A DNA stretch of 64,000 nt from an uncultured Gemmatimonadales bacterium (GTDB lineage: Bacteria; Gemmatimonadota; Gemmatimonadetes; Palauibacterales; Palauibacteraceae): the NCBI GenBank assembly GCA_963783385.1, contig CAWANJ010000009.1, forward strand, positions 896,410 to 960,409, in the 5' to 3' direction. Shown here one piece after another: positions 40,697 to 64,000 of this stretch. Within the stretch, counting starts at the first letter, position 1, and each line of letters begins with the position of its first letter. The position numbers and the translations under genes were made by a program. The notes under the pieces are model-generated. The model had not been told where the DNA came from, did no database searches, and saw only the letters and a program-made list of their open reading frames with translations.

Positions 40697-40716
40697 AGGC
40701 ACTCACCTGCATGCGC

Positions 40717-43389: not shown

Positions 43390-43575
43390 GGCGCCCAAGA
43401 TGGGAACGGACCGTGAATTGCGCCAGAATCGCACTACGACGCTCGCTCGGGCCGTCCAGCGAACCACGTGAGCTGCAGCCCACGGTGCATCCCACCGTTT
43501 GCCGGGCCGATCCAGGCCGATCTACGTTCGGGACGTCGGGCGGGCTTTTCGGAACCTCACACCCGGGAAGGCGTC

Positions 43576-46515: not shown

Positions 46516-47514
46516 TCAGCCGGCGTTGTCCGGAAGCCGATCGAACAGCGTGCAGCGCCGGACGATGATCGCCGTGTCCGCCCGCCCCAGGGCCCGGGCC
46601 TCGTTGAGGGCGACCTGGCCCGCCAGGGCGAAACGATCCACGGCCGTCAGGTAGCTGATCCCCGGGACCGTGGGATCGTACTTCTTCGGGGGCGGCGCCC
46701 CCTCGATGGGCTCGAAGCGGGCCGCCCCGTGTCCGGCCTCGAACCGGGCTCGCTGGCTCCTGTCGCGGACATCCATGGAGAAGAGCCGGGCGTGCGCCTC
46801 CCGCGCCAGCTCCTGGCACACGGGATCGGGCGAGCGGCCCAGGTGCTCGATGGCCACCTCGAGGTCGTCGAGCGGGGCGCGCGCGACGCACTGGACCTCG
46901 AGCGTGGAGGGCCCCGCGTCCGCCGGGGAGTCCTTTGGCTCGTCCTCGTCCGGCACGGGCCAGGTGGACCGCACCCGGCAGTACGTGTCCCGGCTCTCGA
47001 GGCCGTAGGAAGTCGAGCCGCCGCTGTCGGCCTGGTCGTACTTCAGGTACACCCAGCCGGCCCGGAGGAAGAGCGAGTCCGCGAGCGACCCCTCGGCGTC
47101 CCGGTACTCGGTCCGCAGCGTGCATCCCGGGCGGCCCTCGTAGGCGGCGCCCTCCTCCCGCCGGGGCGTGGTCCCCGTGGCCCGCTCCACCCAGGCGGCC
47201 GCGCTGTCGCAGGCGGTCCGGAGATCCGCGTAGGAGGCCGTGGGCCGGGGCGGCTCCGGACCGGGCGGCGGCGACCAGGGCATCTCCCTGGCGTGCATGG
47301 CCGGGAGCCCTCCGCGCGAGCCGATGGCCCCGGCCACCACCGCGCCGGTGTCAGCCGGCCGGGCCGCCGCCCCCGCGGCCGGGACCGAGTCGGCGGGCCC
47401 GTTCCCCGCGCGCCGCTCCTCCCCGCCCCGTCCAGCGCAGGCCGGCGCCAGGACCGCGCAGGCGGCGAGGGCCGCGCACAGGGCGCGTCGAGGACTCCTG
47501 TCGCGAACGCTCAT
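46516..47514 (-). CDS. hypothetical lipoprotein
   Basis: ATG (rc 47512-14) with a GGAGG RBS and lipobox LAACAVLAPAC. The start overlaps the upstream gene's stop by 4 nt. Confidence 0.5.
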   Translation of the reverse strand: MSVRDRSPRRALCAALAACAVLAPACAGRGGEERRAGNGPADSVPAAGAAARPADTGAVVAGAIGSRGGLPAMHAREMPWSPPPGPEPPRPTASYADLRTACDSAAAWVERATGTTPRREEGAAYEGRPGCTLRTEYRDAEGSLADSLFLRAGWVYLKYDQADSGGSTSYGLESRDTYCRVRSTWPVPDEDEPKDSPADAGPSTLEVQCVARAPLDDLEVAIEHLGRSPDPVCQELAREAHARLFSMDVRDRSQRARFEAGHGAARFEPIEGAPPPKKYDPTVPGISYLTAVDRFALAGQVALNEARALGRADTAIIVRRCTLFDRLPDNAG

Positions 47515-48812
47515 GGTTCTCCGCCGCCTCCCCTCAGCTCCAGCGCCATGTCCTCGTAGTCGATCACGTATTCCTTGAACCCATGAAGGGCGTCCCTTCC
47601 CAGCAGGCACATCAGGTGGGGGTCCTGCCAGGACGGGAGGCTCGTGCGGACGTCGAGGCGGTCGAGCTCGACGGGCGCTCCGGCGACGCCCAGGGTGAGC
47701 CGGGGCAGCACCACCACGGGCAGCCTGCGAATTCCGCCGCTGCCCCCGACCTTCACGGTGTCGACGCGACCCACGCTGTTGACCCAGGACCGGTGAACCC
47801 GGTAGTAGGGCTCGAACAGGATCGTGGTGCCGGATCCGGTGTCGAGCTGGCAGGCCAGCGTGTCGAACCGGAAGGTGACGGAGACGAACGGCGTGTACTG
47901 GTGGAACGCCAGCGTGCCGGCCGCCTCCGACCCGAAGCTGGCCGGCACCGTGATCGTCCCGTCCGCACGGTAGGCCAGCGCGCCGAGCGCTCTCTGGACC
48001 GGAAATCCCAGGAGCCCGGTGATCCGGAGCCCGGGAAAGGTGAGCGCCGAGTCGGGCAGCACCAGGAAGACCACGTGACGGAGCATCGCCCCGCCCACCT
48101 CCACCCGGTCCGCCACGGCGACGTCCGCCCGCACCCGGAGGTCCGTCGAGGACCCGACCTGGAGGTTCGCGGGCCGGATCGCGAGCCCGAGGCCCTCGGC
48201 CTCCGACCGCATGAGCACGGAGAAGTTGGCGCCGCTGTCGAAGGCGTAGCGCCGGGGCGTCGAGTCAATGGACACGGCCACACCGCCGTGGTCGTCCGGA
48301 TGCAGCGTCCCGCCCCGGCGGGCCTCCACGCTCTGGGGCGGCACGTCGCGCAGGGCCTCGAGGAGGCGAGCCGTGTTCGCGAGGTCGCTCTTCCGGGCCG
48401 AGTCGGCGAAGGGCGACGCCATGAGCGCCCGGGCGTCCCTGAGGGCGTCGGCCCACCGGTAGAAGCGCAGGTCGTTCTGGTAGCGAAGCCGCCCCGCCAG
48501 ATAGCCGAGCGAATCCGGAAGGGTCGCCCCGGAGGCCTCCAGGCGGTCCAGGAGCGAGTCCGCGGCGGCCTCCCGGCCGAAGGCGTTGGCCACCACGGCC
48601 CGCAGGTAGAGCGCGTAGGGGCCCTCCCGGTTCCGCTCCGCCTTCAGATGGTCGCGGAGCCGGAAGTAGTCGTGCTCCTGCTCCAGGCGCAGGAGCGCGG
48701 AGCGGGCCGAGTCCGGCAGCGCCGGGGCCGGGCGGGAGCGCTGGCCGCAGCCGGCTCCGGCGCCGGTCAGCAGGACCGCCACCCCCAGCGCCAGGCCGCG
48801 ACGCCCCTCCAT
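47511..48812 (-). CDS. lipoprotein with retropepsin-like (clan AA) aspartic-protease domain; TPR-like N-terminal region
   Basis: Lipobox LLTGAGAGCG. Two Asp-Ser/Thr-Gly motifs (FDSGANFSVL and LDTGSGTTIL), consistent with a pseudo-dimeric or single retropepsin-like fold. The start overlaps the MT stop (ATGA). Confidence 0.55.
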   Translation of the reverse strand: MEGRRGLALGVAVLLTGAGAGCGQRSRPAPALPDSARSALLRLEQEHDYFRLRDHLKAERNREGPYALYLRAVVANAFGREAAADSLLDRLEASGATLPDSLGYLAGRLRYQNDLRFYRWADALRDARALMASPFADSARKSDLANTARLLEALRDVPPQSVEARRGGTLHPDDHGGVAVSIDSTPRRYAFDSGANFSVLMRSEAEGLGLAIRPANLQVGSSTDLRVRADVAVADRVEVGGAMLRHVVFLVLPDSALTFPGLRITGLLGFPVQRALGALAYRADGTITVPASFGSEAAGTLAFHQYTPFVSVTFRFDTLACQLDTGSGTTILFEPYYRVHRSWVNSVGRVDTVKVGGSGGIRRLPVVVLPRLTLGVAGAPVELDRLDVRTSLPSWQDPHLMCLLGRDALHGFKEYVIDYEDMALELRGGGGEP

Positions 48813-49530
48813 CAGGCGGGCCCTCCGGCTCGCGCCGTGAACAGTCCGCGGCCGATGAGTCCCTCCGGGTCGTAGTCGACCTCCGTGAACCCGGCCGCTT
48901 CGAAGCAGCGCTCCAGCTCCTCCCGGGTGAACAGCCCGAGCTCGTGCGTCTCCGTCATGTGCTCGATCCCCTCGCCGCGTCCGACCAGGTAGTGGAACTC
49001 GATCATCGAGAGCCGCCCGCGCCGCCCGGAGAGGCCATCCGGCACACCGTCACCTCCTCGGACTCGGCCGTGTGCAGGAAGACCCGGCCGGTGTGCCACG
49101 CGTCCGGCTCGATCCAGGGCTCGAGCACGACCACCCCGCCGCCGGCCAGGTGCGCGCGAAACCGGCGGAGCGCCCGCTCGACGTTCTCCAGCGTCTTCAC
49201 GTATCCGATGGAGCTGAACAGGCAGAGCACGGCGTCGTACCTCCTGCCCAGGTCGAAGTCCGTCATGTCCCCGCGGGTGAACGTGCGGTCCGGGTGCTTG
49301 CGCCGCGCCAGGCGCACGAAGTCCGGCTCGACATCCAGGCCGTCGACGTCGTAGTCGTGGTCTCGCGCCAGGAGCCGCCCGTGCTCTCCGGTGCCGCACC
49401 CGACGTCCAGCAGGGTGCGGGCGCCGGTATGGAGACGCCCGAGCAGCTCGGCGACCCGCCGGCTCTCGTCGGCGTAGTCCTTGATCTGCCCGTAGATCTG
49501 GTCGTACAGCTCCGCGGATCTCGAGAACAT
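48812..49530 (-). CDS. class I SAM-dependent methyltransferase, one frameshift near 49020-49040
   Basis: ATG (rc 49528-30). Motif I LLDVGCGTGEH. The C-terminal 60 aa (...IEFHYLVGRGEGIEHMTE...) are in ORF 48812..49399. Confidence 0.65.
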
Positions 49531-49582
49531 CGGGCGCTCCGGGGCAGGTGTGCGGTCCGTTCGGCGGCGCTCCGGGCGCCGC

Positions 49583-50787
49583 TCAGGGCTCCGCGGACGC
49601 CGGGCGTCCCGCCTCGCAGGCCCCGCGGGCCCTGGCCAGCCACGCTCCCTGCATGGCATCCATCGCCATCCCGTACCGCTCGGCGAGGCGGCCCCGGTTC
49701 CAGGCCGCCGACGAGTCGGCGTCCAGGGTCCGGTAGGCCGCTTGGAACCGGTCCAGCCCCCGGGCCTCCACCAGGTACTTCACGAAGGACCCGACTCCGC
49801 GTACTCGCTGGGGGCACGCTCGGCGCTCGAGCCAATGTTGTCCAGAGCGAGGAGCTCCTCCAACGGGATGAGCCGCGGCGTGCCCTCCAGGGCGCACACG
49901 GCCTGGTCGACCGACTTCCCGGGGGCGTTCAGGAAGGCGAGGGCGTCGCCGCCGAGCTGCTCGGTCACGTACACGGCGAGCCCCTCGCCGAGCGCCGGCG
50001 GCGGCGATCCGGCCGCGGCCGCCACGATGTGGGTGAGCTCGTGATAGGAGTCGAGCCGGACCGAGTCGTTGTAGACCTCGACCAGCGTGTGCCCGAAGGC
50101 CCAGCCCACCCCCTGGTGGCCGGTCTGCCGGAGCTTGGTGGCCCCGTCCGGATAGAAGACGAGCCGCACGCGGGCGGGAGGCTCCACCCCCACGAGCGCC
50201 GCAATGTCCTTCAGCGCCTCCAGGCGCGCCGCCGCGATGGAGTCCACGCGGCCCGCGGCCAGCGACCCTTTCCACGCGTAAATCTCCAGGGGCCCGCGCC
50301 TCGTCACCGTGAAGTCGCGCGCGGGATCGAACGCGTCCGGACTCGTCTCCCCCACGGGGAACGTCCGCCGGTAGTCCACCCGGTCGAAGGCGAACAGCCC
50401 CTGCTGGATCGGATGGCCCGGCCCGACCTCGACCCGCAGGGTGCCCTCGCGGCTCAACCGCCGGAACTCGTAGCGTCCCTCCAGCACCTTCTGCTCGCCG
50501 GGGGCGAGCTGGACCGTGAAGCGCGCCTGCATGTTCGGGAGCATCCACAGGCCCGGCACGGCCCGGAGGTCCATCACCGCCAGGACCGCCGAGTCGGACC
50601 GGTTGCGGACCGTCGCCCGCAGCGGGTTCTCTCCCAGGCGCGCCGTGTCGAAGGAGAGGGAGACCACCGACAAGGTCGTGTCGGCCCGGGCGGCCCGGCG
50701 AGTGACACCGGTTCGTGCCACCGGGAGAGCCGGAAACAGGGCCACGAGAGGCAGGAGCATCGCGGTCCTCGCGCTGGTCTTCGCCAT
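49583..50787 (-). CDS. secreted HExxH-motif protein (putative zinc peptidase), one frameshift near 49830-49860
   Basis: ATG (rc 50785-87) with a signal peptide (MLLPLVALFPALPVA). HELTH motif at ...RLDSYHELTHIVAA. The C-terminal roughly 80 aa are in ORF 49583..50548. Confidence 0.5.
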
Positions 50788-51002
50788 GGTCGGAGACCCC
50801 ATCGGTACGTGGCCGGGTTTTCGGATACGTCCCACGCGCGCAACGCGAACGGGCCGGTAAGAGGTTCCGGGGCCGGCCCGTTCGCCACGGGCAGGGCCCG
50901 GTTCACCGTACCGATCGCCTCATCGGCCCCGGCGCCGTTGTCGGCCGCCGCGGGGTGGCCTAGGGTCCATCCCACCGTGGACTCCCACACATCAGGGGCA
51001 TC

Positions 51003-53443
51003 ATGCGGCGATCGGCACGACAGGCCACGCGGCGACTCTCCCGGGCCATGATCCTCCTGCTCCCGGCCTGGGCCGGCTCGGCCTCGGGGGCGGTCGGCCG
51101 AGGCCCGGCGCAGCGGCCGCACGGACACCCGAATCCGCCCCCCTCGACGTCACCTACTACCGGATCCACCTGGCGGTCGACCCCGCCCGCCAGCACATCG
51201 CCGGACAGGTGACCATCGCGCTCCGCGGCGCCCCGGCCGCGCCCGACAGCGTGCGGCTCGACCTCTCCGACTCCCTGCGGGTGGCCGCGGTTCGCCGGGA
51301 CGGGCGGCCCGTCCCGTTCACGCACCGCGGCGGCGTCCTGGCCGTCCCCTCGGAGACGTCCGGCGGCGCCCGCGAGGTCCTCGAGGTCATCTACGACGGC
51401 CGCCCCTCCGGGAACGGCTTCACCTTCGCGCGGGGCCCGGACGGCCCGCGGGTCGCCAGCTATGGCATGCCCTACCACGCGCGGCAGTGGTGGCCCAGCC
51501 ACGACGTGACGGCGGACAAGGCCGACTCGGCGGACATCCTGGTCACGGTGCCGGACGGCCTCCTCGCCGTTTCCAACGGCCGGCTGGTGGGACGCAGCCG
51601 GGGGCCGGCGAGGACGTCGACCTTCCACTGGGCGGAGCGACACCCGATCTACCCGGACGTGGTGTCGGTGGCCATCGCCCCGTACGCCACCTTCTCGCTC
51701 TCGCACGTGGAGGCCGACGGGGACACCCTGCCCCTCCGGTTCTACGTGTTCCGGGAGGACTCGGCCAAGGCCCGCGAGGACTTCTCGATCCTCCCCGACC
51801 TCCTCGCCTTCTATGAGCGGCTGTACGGGCCCTACCCGTTCGCGGACGAGAAGTACGGGCTCGCCGAGTTCACCCTCCCGAGCTTCCGCGAGCACCAGAC
51901 GATCCCGAGCCTGGGCGCCGCGCGGATCACGGGGACGCACCGGTACGACTGGATCCTGGCGCACGACCTGGCGCACCAGTGGTTCGGGAACTCGCTGACG
52001 CCCGCCTCCTGGAAGAACGTGTGGCTGAACGAGAGCTTCGCGCAGTACTCCTCGCTCCTGTGGCTCGCGCACACGCGGGGCCGCGCCGCCTTCGACAGCG
52101 CGATCCAGAGCCTGGCCTCGCGCGACGTCCCCGGGCCGCTCGAGATCGCCGACACCACCAACATCCGGTCCATGTTCTCGGGGCTCACCTTCGGGAAGGG
52201 TCCGGTGGTCCTGGACCGGCTGCGGCGGGCCATGGGGGACAGCGCCTTCTTCCTGGCCCTCCGTCGCTACACCGCCCGCTTCGCCTACGGCACCGTGACC
52301 ACGCGGGACTTCCAGGAGGTGGCCGAGCGCGCCGCGGGCTGTTCCCTGGACGGCTTCTTCCGCGAGTGGGTGTACGGGCGCGGCACGCCCGACGACTCGG
52401 AGAGTCCCGAATCCTCAGCCGGACGACGGAGCAATGCGTTTTTTCGGGCCCACGCCGGAGAGCGCCCCCGCCTGCCGGACTCGTCCTACCACCAGTTCGA
52501 CTTCTGGATCGGCGACTGGGACGTGGTGAACCGCCAGCGCCGCCCGCAGGGAACCCAGTGGGGGGTCACCGGGCAGGCCACCGACCGCGTGCACGCGGTG
52601 GCGGGCGGGTGCGGAATCGTCGAGCACTGGCGAGGGACGACCGCCATGGGCCGGGTCCTGGGCTACAGCCTCCGGGCCTGGAACGCCGCCAGGAAGAAGT
52701 GGGACCTGGTCCTCCTGTGGCCCCAGCCGAACCAGCCCAGCTTCTTCACCCTGGAGGGGGCGTTCGGGACGGCCGCGGCGAGTTCTTCCGCACCGCCACC
52801 AACCCGGCCGGGAACGAGGTCCGGGTCCGCTTCACCTTCTCCGACATCACCCCCAACTCCCTCCAGTGGAGCAACGGCACCTCCCGGGACGGCGGGCAGA
52901 GCTGGTCCTCGACCTGGATCATGGAGTTCACCCGCAGGGACTCCGCGGCCGGCCCGCTCCCCAACGGCCCCACCACGGCCCGCGACCGCTGCACCTTCCC
53001 GAGATGCGCCAGATGGACGGGTGGCTCGGCGAGTGGGAGGGAGAGGCGGTCCTGGCCTCCGGCGACACCGTGCCCGCCCGGGCCCGGAGCTACGAGATCC
53101 TGGACGGCTGCGGCCAGGTGGACCGGATCGAGCTGGGCCGAGGTGCCGGTGCCGTGCGGGTCTACCGGGTGCGGACATACGAGCCCGATCCGGGGCGGTG
53201 GGTGGAGTACCGGCTGGACAGCCGGGACGGGGTGATCGACAGGCTGGAGGGCTCGGTGGAGGGCGACGCGGCGCTAATGGAGACGCCGGACGGCGCCGAG
53301 GGCGTGGGGAGCGCCGGGCCGTCCGCACGCGCTGGACCCGGATCGGGCCGGACGGCGTCGAGTTCGAGACGGCGGTTCGGCGCGGGGCGGGAGCGTGGAC
53401 GCCTCTGTGGAGGGTGACCCTGCGGCCGACGGAGGGCCAGTAG
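51003..53443 (+). pseudogene. M1-family peptidase (signal peptide; HDLAH variant of HExxH) fused or read through into tandem DUF1579-like domains; multiple frameshifts
   Basis: Signal peptide ORF 51003..51212, with a frame switch near the C6 run at 51140. M1 core GMPYHARQWWP, LAHDLAHQWFGNS and WLNESFAQY lie in ORF 51209... From about 52440 there are DUF1579-like signatures FDFWIGDW and WLGEWEG, spread over three frames. The P/S/T/G/R-rich middle of ORF 51209..53443 is a frame artefact. Confidence 0.6.
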
Positions 53444-53786
53444 GCCGCCGGTCCGACCCGCGCTGCGGCGGCCAGCCGCGACCCGCCCCCTCTCGATCCG
53501 TGACCCGCAGAGGGGCAGCGGATGCCGACCGCCACCCTCGCAATCGAGCCCGGCACCTGGCGTACGCTCGGCACTCTTGCCTCGACGACCCGGCCCCCAT
53601 CAGCTCCGACCCTCCCGTTCGCCTTGCCCGGCATCCGAGCGGGACTCTAGCTTTCGATTCCGCTTCCTGCTCGGCAGACAGGGGCGTCGAGATGCTCCCC
53701 ATCCTTCGACCTCTGCTCGTCCATTACGTGGCGCGCTGATACCCGAGCTCGCGGCCGAACCTCACCCAAGCCCGTGACGGTCAGCC

Positions 53787-56631
53787 ATGGCAAACTCGCA
53801 AGAGCTGTTTCGCTTTCAGGTGATTCGACCGCCACGCCCGGGTCTGGCCTCGAGCGCGCCTGACGAGCCCGAACCGAAGAGTGAGCTGGCACCCGAGATC
53901 GAGGGCTCGGAGACACAAGACGAGGCGCTGCGATCCGCGGAAACCTACCGGTCCTCGTCCAGCTACGTGAGTGGGCTCTCCGACATCCCGGAGAGTATCG
54001 AGACCTCTCGAACTGGATCGACCAGCACCCGGGGGCGGACGACGCCGAAGTGAGTGCGGCGGTCGCCACGCACCTCGACGTCGATCCGAAGGAGGTCGTC
54101 GCATCATCGGAGTTCGCCGAGCTCCAGGTCCGTGTAGCGGACAGCGAGATCGCGGACCTGCTCAGCGGCGAGGCAGGAGCGGCCCGTGCCGTGGGCCGCA
54201 TGCTCCTGCGTATCCGACAGGCCGCCGGCGAATCCACGGTCGGTGCGGGACTTCCGATCGACGTGCGACTTCCAGGCCCGCCCGCACCGACGGACGGCGG
54301 GAAGACCGTCCCCGACGTCTCACCCGGCTCCACGCTGGAGGAGTTCCGCGCTCTGGTCGATCTGCGGGCCAGACTCCACCGCGGCGCCGTGGAAGCTCTG
54401 GCGACCGGCCGGCCGGGCACGGGGGCGATCAGCGCTCATGTACGCTTGGATCCAGCGGCGCCGGCAGCCGGGGGCGGCGACCGTCGGTTCCGGGACCTCA
54501 CGCTCGAGGATCTGCCGCTCGATGAGTCGGACCGGACCCGACTTCGGGACTTGCAGCTCGAGTCGGGAACGGGGGTGCTGGAGGCCCTGCGGTCCGTGCA
54601 GGAGCGAATGGACCGCGCGCTCGAGGACGGCGTGGGCCCCGCCGGGAGCGACCCGGCGAGCGCGAGGACCAGAAGCCTGGCCATGACCTCGGAGCTGCCG
54701 CGGTTTCTCTTCGAGATCGGAGCCGGATACGCCCAGGGCTTCAAGGTCATGGATCTCGAAGTGGGCGAGCGCACGCTCAAGCGGTACGAAATGGCGGAGA
54801 TCGCCCACATTGAGAATGCGCTCCGGGGCGAGCTGCGCGTTCGAGATCACGTCCGCGGCACGGTGCGCGAGGACATCACGATCGTCGACGATTCGACGCT
54901 GAGGTCGACCGAAGAGGACCTGCAGAGCGACGAGCGCTTCAGCCTTTCGAGACAGGCGCAAGACGTTCAGAGAGCGGAAACGGAGCTCCAGGCCGGGCTC
55001 AAGGTCAATGCGAGCTACGGTCCCGCGGTGCGGGTGGAGATCACGGGAAGCGCGAGCCAGAACCGATTCAACGAGACGGTCCAGAACGCGGCTAGCGAGT
55101 ACGCACGCAACGTCACGAGCCGGGCCGTCAGCCAGAATGCAGACCACCCATCGAGAGCAGAGGATCACCCGGCAGGTCGAGTCCGTGGAGGAGAGGAACC
55201 ACCACGAGATCGACAACAGGGGTCAGGCGGATCATGTCATCGGGGTGTACCGCTATATCGACAAGACCTACGAGGTCGCGGTGCGCAACTACGGGGTCCG
55301 ACTCGTGCTGGAGTTCATCGTCCCCGAGCCGGGAGCGAATCTCCTGCACGCGGCGGCGGCGAGCGGATCGGCGGCGCAGGTCGAGAAGCCCGAGGAACCG
55401 ACGTTCTTCGATCGACCGCTTCGACTGACGGACATCCGCGACGACAATGCCTACCGGGTGATCGCCAGTCGGTACGGGGTGGAGGTGGAGCCGCCCCCGC
55501 GTCCGCTCGTCGCCCTGACGGAGGTGCAGTTCGACCACGACTCGGCCAAGGAGGTGCAGCCGGCCGGGACCGTCGCGATTGCGAAGGGTTCGATCCCGGT
55601 GCCGGACACGCATTATCCGTCCAGCGTATGGGGTCGATTCGCGGGCTTTCAGACGGAGGTCGGTCTGTCGCTCTACACGCCCGACGACACGGCCGGGGCC
55701 GGGTACTCCGACCCGCCACCCGACAGCCTGGTGGGGAAGGAGTACGCCGTCTTGGTGCAAGAGGGCGAGATGTCGGGGAGGGGCCCCATCCTCGTCGACC
55801 TCGAGCAGATCACGGAGCAGGCGGCCGGACCCGTCGACTTCGCCGCCGTCTCGCGAGAGAACCCGATCACCGGCGGCGTGCACGGCGGCGGTGTGGTCGA
55901 AGCCTTCTGCCTGCCCACGGCGGCCGCGTTCCAGGCGTGGCAGGTCAAGACGTTCAACGCCATCATGGACGCGTATCGACGGGAGCTGGACAAGTCCAGG
56001 AAGCACTGGCGGCCGCCGACATCGGCGCGGGTGTCCGGATACAGGGCCGCAGCCCGGACATCAACCGTGAGTACGAGCGCAACGAGCTGAAGCGCGGCGT
56101 GATCACGTTGCTCGAGGGATCGCCGCCCGACACGCCGGCGATCGCCGGGGACGGCTTCAGCCCGGTGCCGGCGATGGCCGCCTCCCACGGCCCGAAGATC
56201 TCCTTCTTCGAGACCGCCTTCGAGTGGGAGCACATGACGTACGAGACGCTCCCGTACTACTGGGCGCGCCACGATCAATGGGATGCCTTGCTGTCGATCG
56301 ACGATCCCGATCCCGAGCATCGCAGATTCCTGCAGGCGGGGGCTGCGCGCGCGCTGATCCCGGTCCGCCCGGATCACGAATGGTACGTAGCCGGCGTGCT
56401 GACCGCGATCGTCCTCCACGGTGGCACCATCGCCCCCAGCCTGTTCGAGCCATCGCGGGGCCGGCCGTGATCGTTCGGTCCTTCTACGAGGCGGTCACCG
56501 ACGTGCTCGACGCACGGTCCCGGGAGAGCGATGATGAGCCGAGGACCGTGGGCCAGCCGTTCGAGGTGACCGTGCCTACGAATCTGGTGATCCTGCAGAA
56601 GGACTCTGCGCTCAATCCCCACGACGCCTGA
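53787..56631 (+). pseudogene. very large hypothetical protein 'ORF B' (about 948 aa), no recognisable family; at least 4 frameshifts
   Basis: A protein-like reading requires frame switches at about 53990 (…SDIPE|YRDLSNWIDQHPGADDAEVSAAV…), 55140, 56010 and 56450 (…SLFEP|IAGPAVIVRSFYEAVTDVLDARS…NPHDA*). GC is about 60-62% against roughly 70% in the flanks. Confidence 0.5.
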
Positions 56632-56639
56632 GCTCCACC

Positions 56640-58862
56640 TTGGGCTCACCTCTCTCCGTCCACCCGGCACCGCGCGCGGTGCTGGAGCTGGCGGCGTGGC
56701 CAGTCCCGGATCCGGCGATACGAACTCCCCTGGCCGACGAGGACCGGTATTCAGGCGACCCGGGCTTCTTCGCGGTTCCGTCCGACTCCGAGGTTCCGGA
56801 ACGCTGGCTGCATTCCGACACGACCCGCCTTGCGGTACGCTCCGTCAACGACACCGACCCTTCGCTCCGTCGAGGGGCGAGGGAGTCGCTGGCGACTGGC
56901 GTCAGCCGCCAGGTCCCCGATTTCGATCTCTTCCGCGAAGCGATGAGCCGCGAGAAGGCCATCAATGTGATCCTCCTTCTCGTCTTTCCGGGCAGCACGG
57001 CCGACAACACGGGCACGAAGGACCTGAATGACAAGGTCCTCGGCTATTCACTGACCTCCGAGTACATAAGGAAGAGAAACGCGGCCATCGACGCCGTGTT
57101 CGAGGCCGAGGGCTTCGTGATGATCGATCAGGACTTCAAGTCGAGCGGCTTCGTGCCGACCGCGGAGGCGTCCAGGCACCTTCTCGACGCCGGGCAGGCG
57201 CAGAAGAAGCGCTCGCGGGAGTATCGCGAGCGCTTCGACCGGGGACTGTCCGCCCTGGACGGGCGACTGCGCGACCTCCTGCTGGACATCCTGCAGAATC
57301 GATTCGACGAGATCGATGAGACGCACCGGGAAGCGGCGCGGACGTTACGGGATCGCCTCCTGGAGGACGCGGACCATCGGTTCGACGTGACCTACGGCAT
57401 GGCCAACCCTGCGGGGAGAGGGGCGACCTCCCAGGACATCTACCCCCCACTGCTCCTTGCGAAGCTGAATGCTTCCAAGGCCTCGTACACGGCGCGGCGT
57501 CGGGACCTGATCGACTCCCTGCTGCCAGGCTGGCACGGCTCCGACTTCGACCGGCGCGGGTACGCGTTCGACCCGGCCACGTACCAGCGCCTGTCCGTGA
57601 AAGCCGGGGAGATCAGAGACGAGATTCGGCGACACCTCGATGGCCAGATCACGGTGGACGGAGTCCGCGCCAGGGTCTTCGTTCGGGTCCGGGGAAAGCT
57701 GACCCCCAACCGCCACGTGATGCGGGACGCCCGGAAGGGGAAGATCAAGCCGCCGGATCCCTCACCGGAGAAGGACCAGCTCGAGCGCATCGAGGGATAC
57801 CGAGCCATCGTCAACACGATGGACGTGTTCGAGAGCTTCCTCTCTGGCGAGCTGGACGGCGAGAAGGCCGGGCAGCTCCGACGCGCCACGCGGCTCCACG
57901 AGAAGCTGGGGAGGATGGACACCGATATCGGGCGAGGCGAGCTCTCGCGGGTGCTCGACGTCGATGTCCGCATGGAGAGGATCGCGCTGGCAAACCGGAC
58001 CTCCGAGTACCTGTTCTTCACGGAGGCGGCCGATCATCGACATCGAGTCATCGTCGGTCTCGACATCCGCGATCTCGGAGTGGACGCGCTGATCGAGTAT
58101 GCCCGGGCGGTGGACCGGGTGGCCGAGAAACCCGGCACGAGCCTGCTGGCGGTCACGCTCGAAGCGAACGATCCGATCCTGGCCATGAAGCGCCACGCCG
58201 TCGACCTGATCGTCGACGCCTATGGCAAGATGGCGTCGAAGCTGCTGGCGGCCGACGTGGGCTGGTTGCATGACGCCGCCGAACCGTACAACCGTGCCTG
58301 GGCGGAGGCCTACGGCTATGCCGGAGGCTTCGACATCCTCGCCGACCCTCTCGACCGCTCGGAGTCCCCCAACTACCTCATCGGCGGCGACGAGGTGATT
58401 CTCGCGCTCCCGCCCGCGTTTCTGCCGCTGATCCCCGAATTCCTGGGGCGGGTCTGCCCGCCGTCGGCCACGAACACTCGCGGCGCCGTGGTCTTCTCCG
58501 ACGCCGGTCACCCGCCCGACGCGGATCCCGCGGTTCAACGTCGGCTGAATCAGCACGCCCACGCGACCGCGCTGACGGCGGCCGACAAGGGGCCCGACAT
58601 CCTGAAGGACCTGGAGCGAGATCACTGGCGGCTCGGACGGAAGATCGAGAAGATCGACGACGATGCGGAAAGGCGGGAGAAGCAGCGCCGCCTTGCCGGC
58701 CTGGGGCTTCTCCGATTGTACGTCGAGATTCCATCGCTCTACGGCATTCCCGACCTTCTCCCCAGTCGTGTCTTCATCAAGGACTTCTCCGGGACGAAGA
58801 GGAGCTTCTTCGACCTGAAGCGTCGCATCGCCGAGCTCGAGAAGGAGCTTCCGGCCACCTGA
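56640..58862 (+). CDS. large hypothetical protein 'ORF C' (740 aa) with C-terminal GGDEF/palm-like signature
   Basis: The ORF is intact, with a TTG start 9 nt after the ORF B stop and lower GC. The C-terminal region has VIVGLDIRDLG (58050-58080) and RSESPNYLIGGDEVILALPPAF (GGDEV at 58383-58397). This matches the GG(D/E)EF plus hydrophobic run plus P pattern of diguanylate-cyclase and mCpol palm domains. The N-terminal 500 aa are unrecognised. Confidence 0.55.
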   Translation: MGSPLSVHPAPRAVLELAAWPVPDPAIRTPLADEDRYSGDPGFFAVPSDSEVPERWLHSDTTRLAVRSVNDTDPSLRRGARESLATGVSRQVPDFDLFREAMSREKAINVILLLVFPGSTADNTGTKDLNDKVLGYSLTSEYIRKRNAAIDAVFEAEGFVMIDQDFKSSGFVPTAEASRHLLDAGQAQKKRSREYRERFDRGLSALDGRLRDLLLDILQNRFDEIDETHREAARTLRDRLLEDADHRFDVTYGMANPAGRGATSQDIYPPLLLAKLNASKASYTARRRDLIDSLLPGWHGSDFDRRGYAFDPATYQRLSVKAGEIRDEIRRHLDGQITVDGVRARVFVRVRGKLTPNRHVMRDARKGKIKPPDPSPEKDQLERIEGYRAIVNTMDVFESFLSGELDGEKAGQLRRATRLHEKLGRMDTDIGRGELSRVLDVDVRMERIALANRTSEYLFFTEAADHRHRVIVGLDIRDLGVDALIEYARAVDRVAEKPGTSLLAVTLEANDPILAMKRHAVDLIVDAYGKMASKLLAADVGWLHDAAEPYNRAWAEAYGYAGGFDILADPLDRSESPNYLIGGDEVILALPPAFLPLIPEFLGRVCPPSATNTRGAVVFSDAGHPPDADPAVQRRLNQHAHATALTAADKGPDILKDLERDHWRLGRKIEKIDDDAERREKQRRLAGLGLLRLYVEIPSLYGIPDLLPSRVFIKDFSGTKRSFFDLKRRIAELEKELPAT

Positions 58863-58937
58863 CCTTGGCCCTCCCGCCGCCCCGGCTACGGCCCGCAGGG
58901 CGGCGTCGAGAGGTCGCGGACGGCCACCTTCGCGTCG

Positions 58938-59177
58938 TCACAATCGGAGCCGTAGAGCGAGCAGTAGCGAGATGTCGACGCCCACCCGGTCTGCAATGCT
59001 GTCGAGCGAAGCCAACGCCCCGGCCGAGCCGGCGGCCACCCTGGCCTCCAGCAGCACCGCCTTCCGGCCCGCCGGGAAGTAGTAGCCGACCGCGAACCGG
59101 TGCACCCGTCCCTTCATTCCTCGCGACAGGATCGCGTCGAGGACGGGCTTCCATCCACCGAAGATCGCCGACGGCAA
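58938..59177 (-). CDS. small hypothetical ORF (79 aa, TTG start)
   Basis: GC3-rich codon usage and a protein-like sequence (…GRVHRFAVGYYFPAGRKAVLLEARVAAG…). It could equally be a gene remnant. Confidence 0.25.
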   Translation of the reverse strand: MPSAIFGGWKPVLDAILSRGMKGRVHRFAVGYYFPAGRKAVLLEARVAAGSAGALASLDSIADRVGVDISLLLALRLRL

Positions 59178-59344
59178 GGGTCCGGAGTCGGGCCGGATCC
59201 ACGAGAGCAGAACAGGGCGAGCGAGTCCGAAAGCTGCGCCATCCCGCGCGTCGAGGTCAACGGCGTGCGACGTGCGGCCGGCCGAGAGCGGTGGGCGGGG
59301 AGCGTCCGACGCGGGGAGCCGCCCGCGCTGACCGGCGGTTCGAC

Positions 59345-59471
59345 TCAGGTCTCTTCCTGGATCGGAGACGAGCGCAGACGGCGATCGAACTCGCGGGCAT
59401 CGAGCGCGCGGTGCAGATCGGTCTCGAGGCCCCCGACCCGCTCCCGCAGGTCCGCGGTCTCACGGGCCATT
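59345..59471 (-). CDS. small ORF (41 aa, coiled-coil-like MARETADLRERVGGLETDLHRALDAREFDRRLRSSPIQEET)
   Basis: Below the ORF-track size cut-off. The ATG overlaps the stop of the upstream small membrane ORF (ATGGcccgTGA). GC3-rich. Confidence 0.25.
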
Positions 59472-59639
59472 CTGGTCGACCCGCCTCTGCGTGTCTTCGG
59501 CCGCGAGGCCACGCAGACGCGCGAAACGGTCGATCAGGGGCCCGATCGTGAAACGGGCCGTCAGACCGACCACGGGAACGAGCACGACGACGATCATCGC
59601 ACCGAGGCCTATGAGGTCCTTGACCTGGTACCACTCCAT
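59461..59639 (-). CDS. small single-TM protein (59 aa, MEWYQVKDLIGLGAMIVVVLVPVVGLTARFTIGPLIDRFARL...)
   Basis: It is the in-frame tail of ORF 59460..60587, whose upstream part is junk. ATG rc 59637-39. One hydrophobic helix. Confidence 0.3.
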
Positions 59640-59975
59640 GGGTCCGGCTCCGCTCGCAATGACGTGACGAAGGCCCCGATCCGAGGCGGGGCGTACGCCC
59701 TTCCTGACGGGGCCCGGGGGATCGGAGTTTCGGACGTCCCGAACCTGGCGTCGATCGCCAACACGAGCCAGGGCGATAGCATCCTGGGCGAAGCCGCCTG
59801 AGTCCAGCGTCCGGAACCGGCGGAACGGCCCGCCCGCGGTCCGGGTTGTGCCGGATGGCCCGCCGACCGACACATTTCCGAGCGAGTGAAGAAGGGAGCC
59901 CGAGATGCATCGTCCGAGCATGGCCGCCGGGCCGGCGACCCGGCGGCACGCGAGCCGCTTCGTCCGGTTCCGCCC

Positions 59976-60470
59976 ATGGTGACCGACGCGTCGCCCGATC
60001 CCCGGACCGAGCTCATCCGGCACACGCTGGCGACCGTCGCGTATCGCGGCGCCAAGGCCCTGCGCGGGGCGCCCGCGGGCTTCGGCGCCTACCGGGTGGG
60101 ACCCACCTCCCGGACCCCCGCGGAGATCCTGGCCCACGTCGGGGACCTCCTGGAGTGGTCCGCCTGGCTCCTGCGCGGCGAGCATCGGTGGAGCGACTCG
60201 GACCCCCTCGCATGGGAGGAGGAGGTCGAGCGGTTCTTCGGCCTGGCCGACCGCCTCGACAAGACCCTCCTCACCGTGCGTCCCACGGAATGGACCCTGG
60301 AGCAGATCTTCCAGGGGCCGATCGCGGACGCGCTGACCCACATCGGGCAGCTCACCATGCTCCGCCGCCTGGCCGGGGGCCCCGTGCGCGGGGAGAACTA
60401 CGCGAAGGCCGAGATCCTGAGCGGGCGGGTGGGACCGCGGCAGGCCGAGCCCCGCTTCGAGTTCGACTGA
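59976..60470 (+). CDS. DinB/YfiT-like (DUF664) family protein
   Basis: ATG 59976. Contains LIRHTLATVAYRGAKAL...PAEILAHVGDLLEW...HIGQLTMLRRLAG. Confidence 0.7.
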   Translation: MVTDASPDPRTELIRHTLATVAYRGAKALRGAPAGFGAYRVGPTSRTPAEILAHVGDLLEWSAWLLRGEHRWSDSDPLAWEEEVERFFGLADRLDKTLLTVRPTEWTLEQIFQGPIADALTHIGQLTMLRRLAGGPVRGENYAKAEILSGRVGPRQAEPRFEFD

Positions 60471-60585
60471 GCGGAGCGCCCCGCGCAACGCGCGCCGTCG
60501 CTCGCCCCGCTCCGCGGCGGCCCGCTCGCGTCTCCCATACGGCAAGAGGGAACGGCCATGGTCCCGATACGTACCATGAGCCCGC

Positions 60586-61839
60586 ATGAAGACCGAGCGA
60601 ACGAGACTGAACCGTCAGGAGTGGTGGGCCGTCGGCACCTTGAGCGGCGTGTTCTTCCTGCGCATGCTCGGGATCTTCCTCGTGCTGCCGGTGCTGGGCC
60701 CGTACGCGAGCAAGCTGCAGGGAGCGACGCCCCTGCTGGTCGGGCTGGCCTACGGCGCGTTCCCCCTGCTGCAGACGGTGTTCCAGGTGCCGTTCGGCTG
60801 GATGAGCGACCACCTCGGGCGCAAGCCGATGATCGCCCTGGCGCTGGGCCTGTTCACCGCCGGCAGCGTGTGGGCGGCCTTCGCGCACTCCATCTGGATG
60901 CTCATCGGTGCGATGGCGCTGCAGGGCTCCGGGGCCGTCGCCGCCGTGATCCTCGCGCTCGTGGCCGATCTGACGCGACCGGAAGTCCGGACGCGCTCCA
61001 TGGCCATGATCGGGAGCAGCATCGGGCTCGCCTTCGGCGTGGGCTTCGTGGGCGGCCCGCTCCTGGCCGGCCACCTGGGCGTCGCGTCGATCTTCGGGCT
61101 ATTGGCCGTGGTCACGCCCCTCGCGCTGCTCGTCGTCCTGTTCGTGGTGCCGACCCCCGACGAGCTGCCGCAGCGCGACGAGGTCGGGGGCTCGGCCGGC
61201 GGGTTCAGGCACGTGATCACGGACCCCGACCTGCTGCGGATGGACAGCGGGATCTTCATGCTCAACGGCACCCTGCGCGGGCTGTTCCTGGTGGCTCCGT
61301 TTCTCCTGTCCACCCTGGTGGAGCAGCAGCACGAGTGGCTGGTCTACCTGGGCGCGCTGCTGATCGCCGGCGTCGTGATGGTGCCGACGATCATCTTCGC
61401 CGAACGCGACGGGTACATGAAGGAGGCGCTGTACTTCTCGCTGCTGTCGCTGGGCGCGGGGCTGCTCCTGTTCACGGGCGGCGGCCGGAGCCTCACGTGG
61501 TTCTTCGTGGCCATCTCGCTGTACTTCATCGGCTTCAGCCTGCTCGAAGCCATCATGCCCTCGCTGTTGACGCGGCTGGCCCCGTCCAACGACCGCGGCA
61601 AGGCCACCGGCGTGTACAACATGAGCCAGTACCTCGGCTCGTTCGGCGGAGCCCTGCTCGGCGCCGCCTTCCTCAGCGGCGACAAGGCCGAGGCCATCGC
61701 CGTGGGCTCCCACTACGGGCTCCTGTTCCTGCTGCTGACCGGCGTCGTCGCGATCTGGGCCTGGGTCGCGTGGAAGCTTCCCATGCCCACGCGCCAGCAG
61801 GCCGCCGCCCACGGTTCGGCCGCCGGGGAGAAGACCTAG
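60586..61839 (+). CDS. MFS transporter
   Basis: Twelve TM helices. MFS motif A-like GWMSDHLGRKPMIALA and the second-half repeat. Intact ORF. Confidence 0.8.
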   Translation: MKTERTRLNRQEWWAVGTLSGVFFLRMLGIFLVLPVLGPYASKLQGATPLLVGLAYGAFPLLQTVFQVPFGWMSDHLGRKPMIALALGLFTAGSVWAAFAHSIWMLIGAMALQGSGAVAAVILALVADLTRPEVRTRSMAMIGSSIGLAFGVGFVGGPLLAGHLGVASIFGLLAVVTPLALLVVLFVVPTPDELPQRDEVGGSAGGFRHVITDPDLLRMDSGIFMLNGTLRGLFLVAPFLLSTLVEQQHEWLVYLGALLIAGVVMVPTIIFAERDGYMKEALYFSLLSLGAGLLLFTGGGRSLTWFFVAISLYFIGFSLLEAIMPSLLTRLAPSNDRGKATGVYNMSQYLGSFGGALLGAAFLSGDKAEAIAVGSHYGLLFLLLTGVVAIWAWVAWKLPMPTRQQAAAHGSAAGEKT

Positions 61840-62587: not shown

Positions 62588-62881
62588 ATGATCGAGTCCT
62601 TCGGGAACCCCGGGACGGAAGACATCTTCGACAATCGGAATACGAAGGCGGCACGGCGGACGTGCCCCGGGACGCTGTGGCGCGTGGCCCGGAGGAAGCT
62701 CGACCAGCTGAACCAGGCGGAGATCCTGGAGGACCTGAGGGCACCCCCGAGCAATCGGCTCGAGAAGCTTCGAGGCGATCGGACGGGGCAGCACAGCATT
62801 CGGATCAACGAGCAGTACCGGGTCTGCTTCCGGTGGACGGAGCACGGCCCGGAAGACGTGGAGATCGTCGACTATCACTGA
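62588..62881 (+). CDS. higB: type II toxin HigB (RelE/ParE superfamily, plasmid-maintenance killer type)
   Basis: 97 aa, MIESFGNPGTEDIFDNRNTKAARR...QHSIRINEQYRVCFRWTEHGPEDVEIVDYH, a classic HigB end. Confidence 0.8.
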   Translation: MIESFGNPGTEDIFDNRNTKAARRTCPGTLWRVARRKLDQLNQAEILEDLRAPPSNRLEKLRGDRTGQHSIRINEQYRVCFRWTEHGPEDVEIVDYH

Positions 62882-62900
62882 TGCCGGGGAGAAACGAGCC

Positions 62901-63206
62901 GTGACGCGCCTGCCGGCCAACCGCCCTCCCACCCATCCGGGAGAGATGCTGCGGGAGGAGTTCCTCATCCCGCTGGAGATGACTCAGACCGAGCTCGCCC
63001 GGCGGATCGATGTCTCCTATCCGCGGGTGAACGAGATCGTCAACGGGAAACGAGGGATCACGCCCGACACGGCCCTCCGCCTGTCGCGCCTGTTCGGCAC
63101 GACGCCGGAGTTCTGGCTGAACGGCCAGAGGAACTGGGACCTGTGGCACGCGCTGCACAGCCCGGAGGCGGAAGACATCGAGAAGATCGAGCCGGTCGGC
63201 GTGTAG
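62901..63206 (+). CDS. higA: antitoxin HigA (XRE-family HTH)
   Basis: 101 aa, HPGEMLREEFLIPLEMTQTELARRIDVSYPRVNEIVNGKRGITPDTALRLSRLFGTTPEFWLN. Confidence 0.8.
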   Translation: MTRLPANRPPTHPGEMLREEFLIPLEMTQTELARRIDVSYPRVNEIVNGKRGITPDTALRLSRLFGTTPEFWLNGQRNWDLWHALHSPEAEDIEKIEPVGV

Positions 63207-63229: not shown

Positions 63230-63553
63230 CCCCGCTATGCGACATTCGCTTCAGATCGGCCAGCGCCGCCTTCGACGAGCGGCATGACGTAGTACAGGAA
63301 GCCGGCCGCCTCCCCCGAGTCGTAGAGCGGCAGGATGTGCGGATGCCGGAGGCTCGCCGTGGTCTTGATCTCGGCCAGGAACCGCTCGGCGCCGAGAGCC
63401 GCGGCCAGGTCGGGGCGCAGCACCTTGATCGCGACCCTGCGGGAGTGCTTGAGATCATCGGCCATAAAGACTGTGGCCATACCGCCTTCAGCGACCTTGC
63501 GCTCGATGGCGTAGCGGTCGGAGAGGGCGGCGGTCAGGCGGTCCGCGAGGCCC
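63230..63553 (-). pseudogene. 5' remnant (about 100 aa) of a Ser/Thr kinase gene, start lost, truncated next to higBA
   Basis: After the upstream stop (…KGAGRP*) the same frame reads AGLADRLTAALSDRYAIERKVAEGGMATVFMADDLKHSRRVAIKVLRPDLAAALGAERFLAEIKTTASLRHPHILPLYDSGEAAGFLYYVMPLVEG. It then shifts and ends near a GGAAGGGcagcCCCTTCC hairpin (63211-28) abutting the higA stop. Confidence 0.55.
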
Positions 63554-63555
63554 GC

Positions 63556-64000
63556 TCACGGGCGCCCCGCCCCCTTCAGCTTCGCCCGCAGCTCCGGCAA
63601 CCAGTGGCGCACGAGCACGAGCCTGGGCGCCGAGGCGGCACTCGCCCCTTCGGACGCGACGGGGCGGACCATGATGAACCGACGGTCGTCGGGCGCGACC
63701 GCGTAGAAGTGGCTCTGGAAGTTGGCCAGGTACCCGCGCGCGTCGAACAGCCGGTGGTGGGCCCCCGCGGAGAAGGTGGAGCCGGTGGTCACGTCGACGG
63801 CGATCATCTCCCCGGCGCCGTTCCGGTAGAAGAGCTGGCGCCCGTCGTGCGACCACTCGGCCTCCGTGCCGCCGTCGCTCGAGATCGGATAGAGCCCGTC
63901 CCCCGCGTCGGGGAACGGACACACGTAGATCTCCATCCGCCCCGAGGACGAGGACGTGTAGGCGAGCCAGCGGCCGTCGGGCGACAGGGCCGGACCGTAC
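63556..64000 (-). CDS. C-terminal beta-propeller end of another Ser/Thr-kinase/TolB-like protein (gene starts beyond window end)
   Basis: rc of 63556-64000 reads …SPDGRWLAYTSSSSGRMEIYVCPFPDAGDGLYPISSDGGTEAEWSHDGRQLFYRNG…RLVLVRHWLPELRAKLKGAGRP*, the same tail architecture as kinases 1-3. Confidence 0.6.
   Translation of the reverse strand, partial: YGPALSPDGRWLAYTSSSSGRMEIYVCPFPDAGDGLYPISSDGGTEAEWSHDGRQLFYRNGAGEMIAVDVTTGSTFSAGAHHRLFDARGYLANFQSHFYAVAPDDRRFIMVRPVASEGASAASAPRLVLVRHWLPELRAKLKGAGRP

Follow-up and report, generated by a model that had tools for sequence, protein, structure and literature searches.

In a 64,000-nt stretch of the genome of an uncultured Gemmatimonadales bacterium of the Palauibacteraceae (contig CAWANJ010000009.1, positions 896,410–960,409; hereafter the window), two large neighboring open reading frames (ORFs), here called B and C, were found to form a conserved pair in which C is one of many enzymes that can follow B. 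We propose, with a probability of roughly 45%, that this island is one copy of a mobile two-gene antagonistic effector (toxin) cassette with a constant gene, B, and an exchangeable gene, here C, whose product is predicted to be a Cas10/GGDEF-like putative nucleotide cyclase with two palm-type domains. ORF B (53787–56631, forward strand; ATG start, TGA stop) encodes ~950 amino acids (aa) when four frameshifts are corrected, and belongs to a widespread unnamed family of ~950–1100-aa proteins. ORF C (56640–58862, forward strand; TTG start, with an alternative in-frame GTG at 56679) encodes 740 aa without interruption. Both ORFs had been described in the original prediction, which was made from the DNA sequence alone. 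They have the same orientation, and the intergenic gap is as tight as described, although it measures 8 rather than 9 nt; a ribosome-binding site is not obvious there.

Relatives of B were present in at least 416 species genomes of bacteria and archaea, which is a lower bound from a scan of one genome per species. The phyla include Actinomycetota, Chloroflexota, Bacteroidota, Cyanobacteriota, Pseudomonadota, Myxococcota, Bacillota, and Acidobacteriota, and the archaeal relatives include those of Methanoperedens and Methanosaeta. In addition, 15 plasmids carry relatives, all annotated as hypothetical, for example a plasmid of the haloarchaeon Natronorubrum and p01 of Bacillus thuringiensis HD-771. 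The claim that neither protein belongs to a known sequence family was confirmed. Pfam, NCBIfam, PHROGs, and PADLOC matched neither C nor the B fragments nor any of nine intact B homologs, and searches of PDB sequences with profiles of B and C returned coiled-coil noise only. Family-library scans revealed no recognizable NTPase, nuclease or sensor domain in B, and full-text searching of the literature, of incomplete coverage and hence weak evidence of absence, found no description of the family. A phage structural or tail-like role of B was ruled out for lack of phage homologs: a tblastn search of 50,697 phage records with a Streptomyces B protein as query found none, and a PHROG scan of the window B fragments gave chance-level matches only (E 0.25–0.3).

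The hidden Markov model (HMM) of the B family matched 84 loci. Judged from their sequences, the members are soluble proteins of 950–1100 aa with a common layout. They begin with a near-invariant motif (family consensus M-x-E-L-F-R-F-x-L-x-R-P), present at the start of 76 of the 82 homologs examined and represented in the window by MANSQELFRFQVIRPP (53787–53834, forward strand). This motif is followed by a variable helical region of 130–470 aa and then by a conserved core of ~640 aa, which opens with GDLxVVKQxLxRYExGE(I/V)AHIENV. In the window, the core occupies 54743–56631 (forward strand), from KVMDLEVGERTLKRYEMAEIAHIENAL to PFEVTVPTNLVIL, and BLASTP and HMM matches to all homologs span residues ~312 to the end. 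In three loci (L057, L062, and L075, from a Flavivirga genome and from Saprospiraceae and Thioalkalispiraceae metagenome-assembled genomes), the core was found as an ORF of its own starting from the GDLxVVKQ motif, and a separate conserved ORF of 355–413 aa lies directly upstream in place of the N-terminal region. The N-terminal region and the core may thus be separable modules. Tandem cassettes were observed in L005 (552–9741) and L006, where two gene pairs stand in series: an 850-aa B with a 359-aa partner, and downstream of it a very distant B-like protein of 980 aa (HMM E 5e-7) with a 699-aa protein. The family as delimited in this analysis probably represents only part of the B superfamily.

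A co-oriented gene follows B in ~78 of the 84 loci, and its start lies within a few to a few hundred nucleotides. These downstream partners belong to many unrelated families, at least a dozen. A domain scan of 75 partners, supplemented by representative scans, identified PT-TG pre-toxin proteins (9/75), patatin phospholipases (7/75), LodA lysine oxidases (5/75), flavin amine oxidases (3/75), phospholipase D (PLD; 3/75), protein-arginine deiminases (PAD; 2/75), OmpA-domain proteins (2/75), an Amidase_3+SPOR protein (SPOR-amidase; 1/75), a PhoD protein (1/75), and a protein with a type IX secretion system (T9SS) sorting tail (1/75). A further cluster of ~10 members was Het-C-like, and roughly half of the B partners showed no known domain. 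Within a single clade of B cores, Het-C-like, PT-TG, PLD, patatin, LodA, and other partners were all encountered. Besides the partner, no gene was conserved within 10 kb on either side of B. As closely related B cores have different partners and no other neighbor is conserved, the unit consists of a constant B and an exchangeable enzyme. A BLAST comparison of the partner families found no common N-terminal adaptor.

C is one of these partners. A check of co-occurrence in other genomes, which the original prediction had proposed, showed that B and C are adjacent in the window, L001 (order C-B), L002, L065, L080, L093, L095–L101, and L108 (divergent), that is in ~14 independent loci. The predicted two-gene system is thus real as a conserved, tightly coupled pair, but B pairs with an interchangeable partner and C represents one of at least a dozen families. 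In L001 (5029–10525), a Mur-ligase-like gene overlaps the end of B, and a pair of the type found in the cyclic oligonucleotide-based antiphage signaling system (CBASS), consisting of a SMODS nucleotidyltransferase and a patatin, is located 2.7 kb further on, which gives this locus the flavor of a defense island. In another locus (L008, 1349–6305), the gene for a Het-C/VWA7_N protein of 652 aa precedes a broken B-like gene, of which at least four ORF pieces match consecutive segments of the B profile; this contig, too, is a long-read-style metagenome contig.

C had been described as a protein without a common enzymatic signature. Structure prediction and conservation analysis contradicted this statement and gave C a recognizable fold. 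An AlphaFold model built from a 37-sequence alignment reached a predicted local distance difference test score (pLDDT) of 87.6 and a predicted template modeling score (pTM) of 0.88; a 3-sequence alignment had given an unusable model (pLDDT 47.6). When the model was searched with Foldseek, the top 13 matches were full-length Cas10 structures, followed by GGDEF domains and the two-domain soluble adenylyl cyclase, and its palm could be superposed on solved GGDEF domains with their beta-alpha-alpha-beta-beta-alpha-beta fold. No match was obtained in the viral fold library BFVD. Residues 1–39 are disordered in the model, and the N-terminus contains no Pfam domain.

Two palm units were delimited in C from the secondary structure of the model and from conservation. 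The second, putatively catalytic unit (58029–58514, forward strand; residues ~464–625) contains MD(I/V)RDLGV(D/E) on strand 1 (MDIRDLGVD in the window, with D475 and D478), a GGDE hairpin and LNxRxGV (R614). The hairpin residues G582-G583-D584-E585, encoded at 58383–58394 (forward strand), appear from their conservation to be the counterpart of GGDEF/GGDD. They are invariant in 37 diverse members of the C family, as are D475, D478, R614, H641, K656, and E659, and the position directly behind the GGDE motif is occupied by V, I or L in these members, not by F. The first beta-alpha-beta-beta-alpha-beta unit (56961–57407, forward strand; residues ~108–256) carries the motif FPGxxxDNTG(T/I)KDLNDKVLGY, in which G118, G125, K127, and N130 are invariant and D131 and G135 occur in at least 90% of the sequences. 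Its K-x-x-N-D recalls the FKxxND of GGDEF domains. Since its beta-hairpin has no acidic catalytic motif, we read this palm as probably degenerate and nucleotide-binding. We conclude that the palm fold of C is of the cyclase/GGDEF type, that its putative catalytic residues are intact, and that its two palms are probably arranged in tandem as in Cas10; it would accordingly be expected to act as an enzyme. C was not assigned to PF00990, as it had no profile match in Pfam at E ≤ 1, GGDEF (PF00990) included. Neither is it a Cas10, because it has no HD domain and no context of clustered regularly interspaced short palindromic repeats (CRISPR). A Cas10-like toxin domain was not found described in full-text searching of incomplete coverage.

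A word-index search had returned only three relatives of C and suggested a nearly unique protein, which was rejected when an exhaustive HMMER search gave 223 clusters. About 30 of these are stand-alone proteins of 750–830 aa; many others are large (900–4138 aa) and carry the C module at their C-terminus. Among 10 large proteins scanned, five (P0044, P0054, P0058, P0071, and P0074) have an N-terminal eCIS_core domain (PF13699/DUF4157). In addition, the module was found behind a subtilase (Peptidase_S8) in P0030 and behind a VanY D-Ala-D-Ala carboxypeptidase in P0036. The same module is thus placed C-terminally behind different trafficking or marker domains, as is characteristic of toxin domains. 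In toxins of extracellular contractile injection systems (eCIS), DUF4157 is N-terminal, the toxin domain is C-terminal and the linkers are often >1000 aa long (Geller et al.; PMC8213781). A search for B-C fusions found none, and B showed no resemblance to the N-terminal portions of the giant proteins that carry the C module.

These observations suggest a mechanism in which the first gene provides the constant part, a soluble protein of ~1000 aa in which a fixed N-terminal motif and a variable helical region precede a conserved core of ~640 aa, and the second gene the exchangeable part, a toxin-type enzyme that would be swapped downstream of B by recombination. By the rule of gene neighborhood, one conserved protein that serves partners as different as lipases, oxidases that produce H2O2, a deiminase, enzymes of the cell wall, pre-toxin proteins and the cyclase argues for B as a generic effector handler and for C as the effector. 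B would act on every partner alike, as carrier, releaser or activator, and one B clade could for this reason serve lipases, oxidases, deiminases, and cyclases. In the window, the effector would be C, a single-chain tandem of two palms like Cas10 or a cyclase pseudo-heterodimer, of which the second palm keeps the putative metal-binding aspartates and the GGDE hairpin. C would condense or cyclize nucleoside triphosphates (NTPs) and harm the target cell through a rogue nucleotide or drained NTP pools. The toxin cassette is favored because several partner types (PT-TG, LodA, amine oxidases, SPOR-amidase, and the T9SS-tailed protein) are typical of exported weapons, and because the C module stands at the toxin position of eCIS_core proteins; on this reading C would be toxic and the effectors may be exported.

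Several results weigh against a toxin cassette. The Foldseek scores to Cas10 are weak (best E 1.7e-3, TM score ~0.17), and an hhalign comparison of the C profile with one GGDEF-EAL protein gave a probability of 0.4%, with the GGDE hairpin alone aligned. No signal peptides were found in B or in the partners inspected, and no secretion or injection machinery was conserved within 10 kb of the B loci. Among distinct B-C loci no ORF was conserved in the 2.5 kb downstream of C, and no immunity gene was present there; this is unusual for antibacterial polymorphic toxins, though the same has been noted for many eCIS toxins (PMC8213781). The role of B is a guess, B is frameshifted in the window, so that the cassette may be inactive here, patatin and PLD are classic abortive-infection effectors too, and one C-B locus (L001) lies beside a CBASS system. 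Several of these points would be explained if the cassette served abortive infection or another form of anti-phage defense, as the original prediction had suggested, with B sensing infection and releasing or activating a neighboring effector that kills or arrests the host cell. Lipases or oxidases could play the effector part in other loci, and in the window it could fall to a Cas10-like cyclase that depletes NTPs or makes a toxic or signaling nucleotide. Such a role would account for the absence of signal peptides, secretion genes and immunity genes, for the occurrence of the B family in every envelope type, archaea included, for the patatin and PLD partners, for the CBASS neighbor of L001 and for the kinship of C with defense cyclases, as its closest structural relatives include Cas10, mCpol (Panoptes OptS), and the Pycsar cyclases. 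One large conserved protein with swappable effectors is also the pattern of many defense systems, and the window island is located near a higBA module. Defense is the main rival of the toxin cassette and a serious one; nevertheless, we consider it possible but doubtful, and as originally stated it is unsupported. PADLOC-DB v2 models matched neither B (window fragments and nine intact homologs) nor C (one chance-level match, E 0.074), and, as mentioned above, B has no recognizable NTPase, nuclease or sensor domain. Besides, PT-TG, LodA, amine oxidase, SPOR-amidase, OmpA-domain and T9SS-tailed partners are typical of exported antagonistic proteins and not of intracellular suicide effectors; together with the eCIS_core fusions, the partner repertoire points more to exported toxins. 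A signaling module had been named as the other option. The GGDEF-like fold and the GGDE motif of C would agree with a housekeeping second-messenger system, in which C would be a diguanylate- or oligoadenylate-type cyclase for the cell's own signaling and B its regulator or receptor. We regard this as very improbable, given that C has no Pfam GGDEF match, is exchangeable with lipases, oxidases, and deiminases in the B cassette, and is fused elsewhere to eCIS_core, S8 protease, and VanY modules, and that the family is rare and patchy and its composition foreign.

The frame disruption of B raises a different alternative, namely that the window genome carries a decayed, non-functional remnant in which B is a true pseudogene and C an orphan that is drifting or has been co-opted. 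The disruption itself was confirmed. Six-frame translation and piecewise tblastn with intact homologs, which align across all frame pieces, located four frame changes on the forward strand, near 53987 (frame 0 to 2), 55137 (frame 2 to 0), 55996 (frame 0 to 2), and 56454 (frame 2 to 1), and a frame plot of the GC content at third codon positions (GC3) follows them. An independent metagenome contig from a sister strain (L090), 97.9% identical over window positions 46621–60590, has an extra base at all four sites. Relative to L090, one C is absent from a C-run at the first site, an A is missing at the third, where L090 reads LDKYQEAL in frame, and a C is missing at the fourth, which L090 passes in frame. 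L090 thus restores the frame at the first, third and fourth sites, but is itself broken at seven or more other positions, all of which the window passes in frame. The second site is the only one that is also out of frame in L090, and merging the two sequences does not rebuild an intact B.

Decay would fit with four uncompensated frameshifts within 2.85 kb of B, with a B that is broken in the sister strain as well and shares the second out-of-frame site, with the fragmented B relative in L008, and with the ratio of nonsynonymous to synonymous polymorphism (pN/pS) between the window and L090, which for B (0.61) did not improve on that of a wrong-frame control (0.48), whereas the M1 peptidase gene upstream gave 0.19. 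On the other side, L090 is in frame through three of the four window frameshifts and the window is in frame through all other L090 breaks. The window differed from L090 by 82 indels and 204 substitutions, a ratio much too high to be expected from evolution and of the kind that errors in long-read consensus sequences typically produce; by comparison, it differed from the Joint Genome Institute (JGI) contig L003 by five indels and 59 substitutions, with no indel in C. Frame breaks are not special to B, since the M1 peptidase gene and one kinase paralog in the window break frame too, and C keeps every family-invariant residue. True pseudogenization and assembly artifact appear about equally likely as the cause of the broken B; a functionless remnant as a whole is unlikely. 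The contrast of a disrupted B with an intact C, noted in the original prediction, cannot be read as biology with confidence, given the extra bases in L090 and the breaks that L090 itself has at other places. Between the window and L090, ORF C showed only three substitutions and no indel in 1.86 kb (56640–58500), while the divergence was 1.4% in B and in the peptidase gene and ~3.4% at 48–50 kb. Recent transfer, gene conversion or exceptionally strong constraint could account for the near-identity of C.

In the M1 peptidase gene (51209–53443, forward strand), the coding frame changes at ~52.7–52.9 kb, and the 744-aa ORF seems to end in an out-of-frame tail. The version in L090 is uninterrupted (877 aa), which suggests another possible assembly frameshift in the window. 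Three tandem Ser/Thr kinase paralogs with identical HRDIKPEN motifs at 37693, 40291, and 42984 are encoded on the reverse strand at 36800–43500; the one at 41.9–43.4 kb consists of three pieces compared to its siblings, abutting or overlapping at ~42860 and ~42660, which suggests frame breaks.

The island was confirmed to be distinguishable from its surroundings in overall and third-position GC content. Its GC content of 66.9%, compared to a window mean of 71.6% (5.1-kb windows, standard deviation 1.8%), is the lowest of any 5.1-kb stretch in the window, and its GC3 is 82–85% against 93–96% for neighboring genes. The GC dip claimed earlier is therefore real, but the values of 58–62% were wrong (range 63–69%) and the anomaly is about half as large as first estimated. 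Judged by this composition, the B+C pair is foreign and horizontally acquired. A search for boundaries of a mobile element around the island found no tRNA genes and no flanking repeats. The inverted repeat CCCCTCT...AGAGGGG upstream of B (53486–53516, forward strand), which had been taken for a terminator-like hairpin, is not convincing as a terminator: it has no U-tract, its fold z-score against shuffled sequences is −0.2, and a terminator scan gave no match there. Downstream of C, the region 58865–60500 contains ORFs without Pfam match and shows several indels among the window, L003 and L090; it may be non-coding or decayed. The higBA pair reported earlier was found at 62588–63206 (forward strand), with higB encoding a RelE-like toxin of 97 aa and higA a helix-turn-helix antitoxin of 101 aa, and its GC content is also low (64–67%). 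The truncated Ser/Thr kinase fragment, likewise present as described (63244–63618, reverse strand), corresponds to N-terminal residues ~2–130 and is 71% identical to the kinase paralogs.

If the proposed toxin cassette is correct, a family of ~1000-residue proteins in hundreds of species, without a Pfam, NCBIfam or PADLOC model, would gain a testable role from its gene neighborhood. The genes downstream of B would become a catalog of candidate toxins or effectors, about half of them without a known domain, and the known functions of the Cas10/GGDEF palm in signaling and CRISPR immunity would be joined by a third, that of an effector module traded between carriers, eCIS toxins among them. The window itself would hold a horizontally acquired cassette whose constant gene has decayed or was mis-assembled. 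The broader proposition, that B is the core of an unrecognized, envelope-independent effector system of more than 400 species that delivers, releases or switches on a dozen or more unrelated enzymes, with C as the first Cas10-like two-palm cyclase to serve as a weapon and not to generate an immune signal, is put forward with considerable reserve and as somewhat improbable. Such a system, be it offensive, as a new toxin-delivery route, or defensive, as a new abortive-infection family, would be a new type of machine with a fold that no database names.

Compared to known systems, C differs from Cas10 (Csm1/Cmr2), the cyclase subunit of type III CRISPR, in several respects. Cas10 proteins combine two palms, the second of them with a GGDD-type hairpin, and helical domains in a single chain, are genomically associated with Csm/Cmr genes and a CRISPR array, and mostly have an N-terminal HD nuclease domain. 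In C, an HD domain and detectable sequence similarity to Cas10 are both absent, and the hairpin motif reads GGDE where Cas10 has GGDD. Neither a CRISPR array nor Csm/Cmr genes lie nearby; B alone is conserved as a neighbor across the ~14 C loci. A second comparison was with class III nucleotidyl cyclases and GGDEF diguanylate cyclases (PF00990): the window C does not have the upstream RxxD inhibitory site, and GGDEF cyclases make c-di-GMP from GTP as homodimers, whereas the two palms predicted in one chain of C argue for an intramolecular pseudo-dimer. Nor does C fit mCpol/Panoptes OptS, a single palm of ~120 aa beside the membrane effector OptE. With Lamassu, CBASS, and Panoptes mCpol, the cassette shares a large conserved component with a variable effector, patatin partners and structurally related cyclases; it differs from them in that no PADLOC model matches B and that several kinds of partner resemble extracellular proteins. 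The principle of a constant element combined with polymorphic effectors is known; the B family and a two-palm Cas10/GGDEF-like exchangeable effector were not found described in full-text searching of incomplete coverage. The likeness to polymorphic and eCIS toxins lies in a C module behind different N-terminal carriers including eCIS_core, in hypervariable effectors after a constant element, in the PT-TG partners and in the frequent absence of an immunity gene, as for eCIS toxins (PMC8213781). Unlike in these toxins, the constant element B is encoded by its own gene instead of forming an N-terminal domain, it shows no relationship to eCIS_core proteins or known trafficking domains, and no contractile-injection or other secretion genes are linked to the B loci. 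ExoY, CyaA, anthrax edema factor (EF; with its partner protective antigen, PA), and Tas1 are nucleotide-synthesizing toxins that make nucleotides or drain NTPs in the target cell, with folds (class II cyclase, RelA/SpoT) unrelated to that of C. By analogy, the proposed cassette would resemble them in combining a nucleotide-making or NTP-draining enzyme with a separate helper protein.

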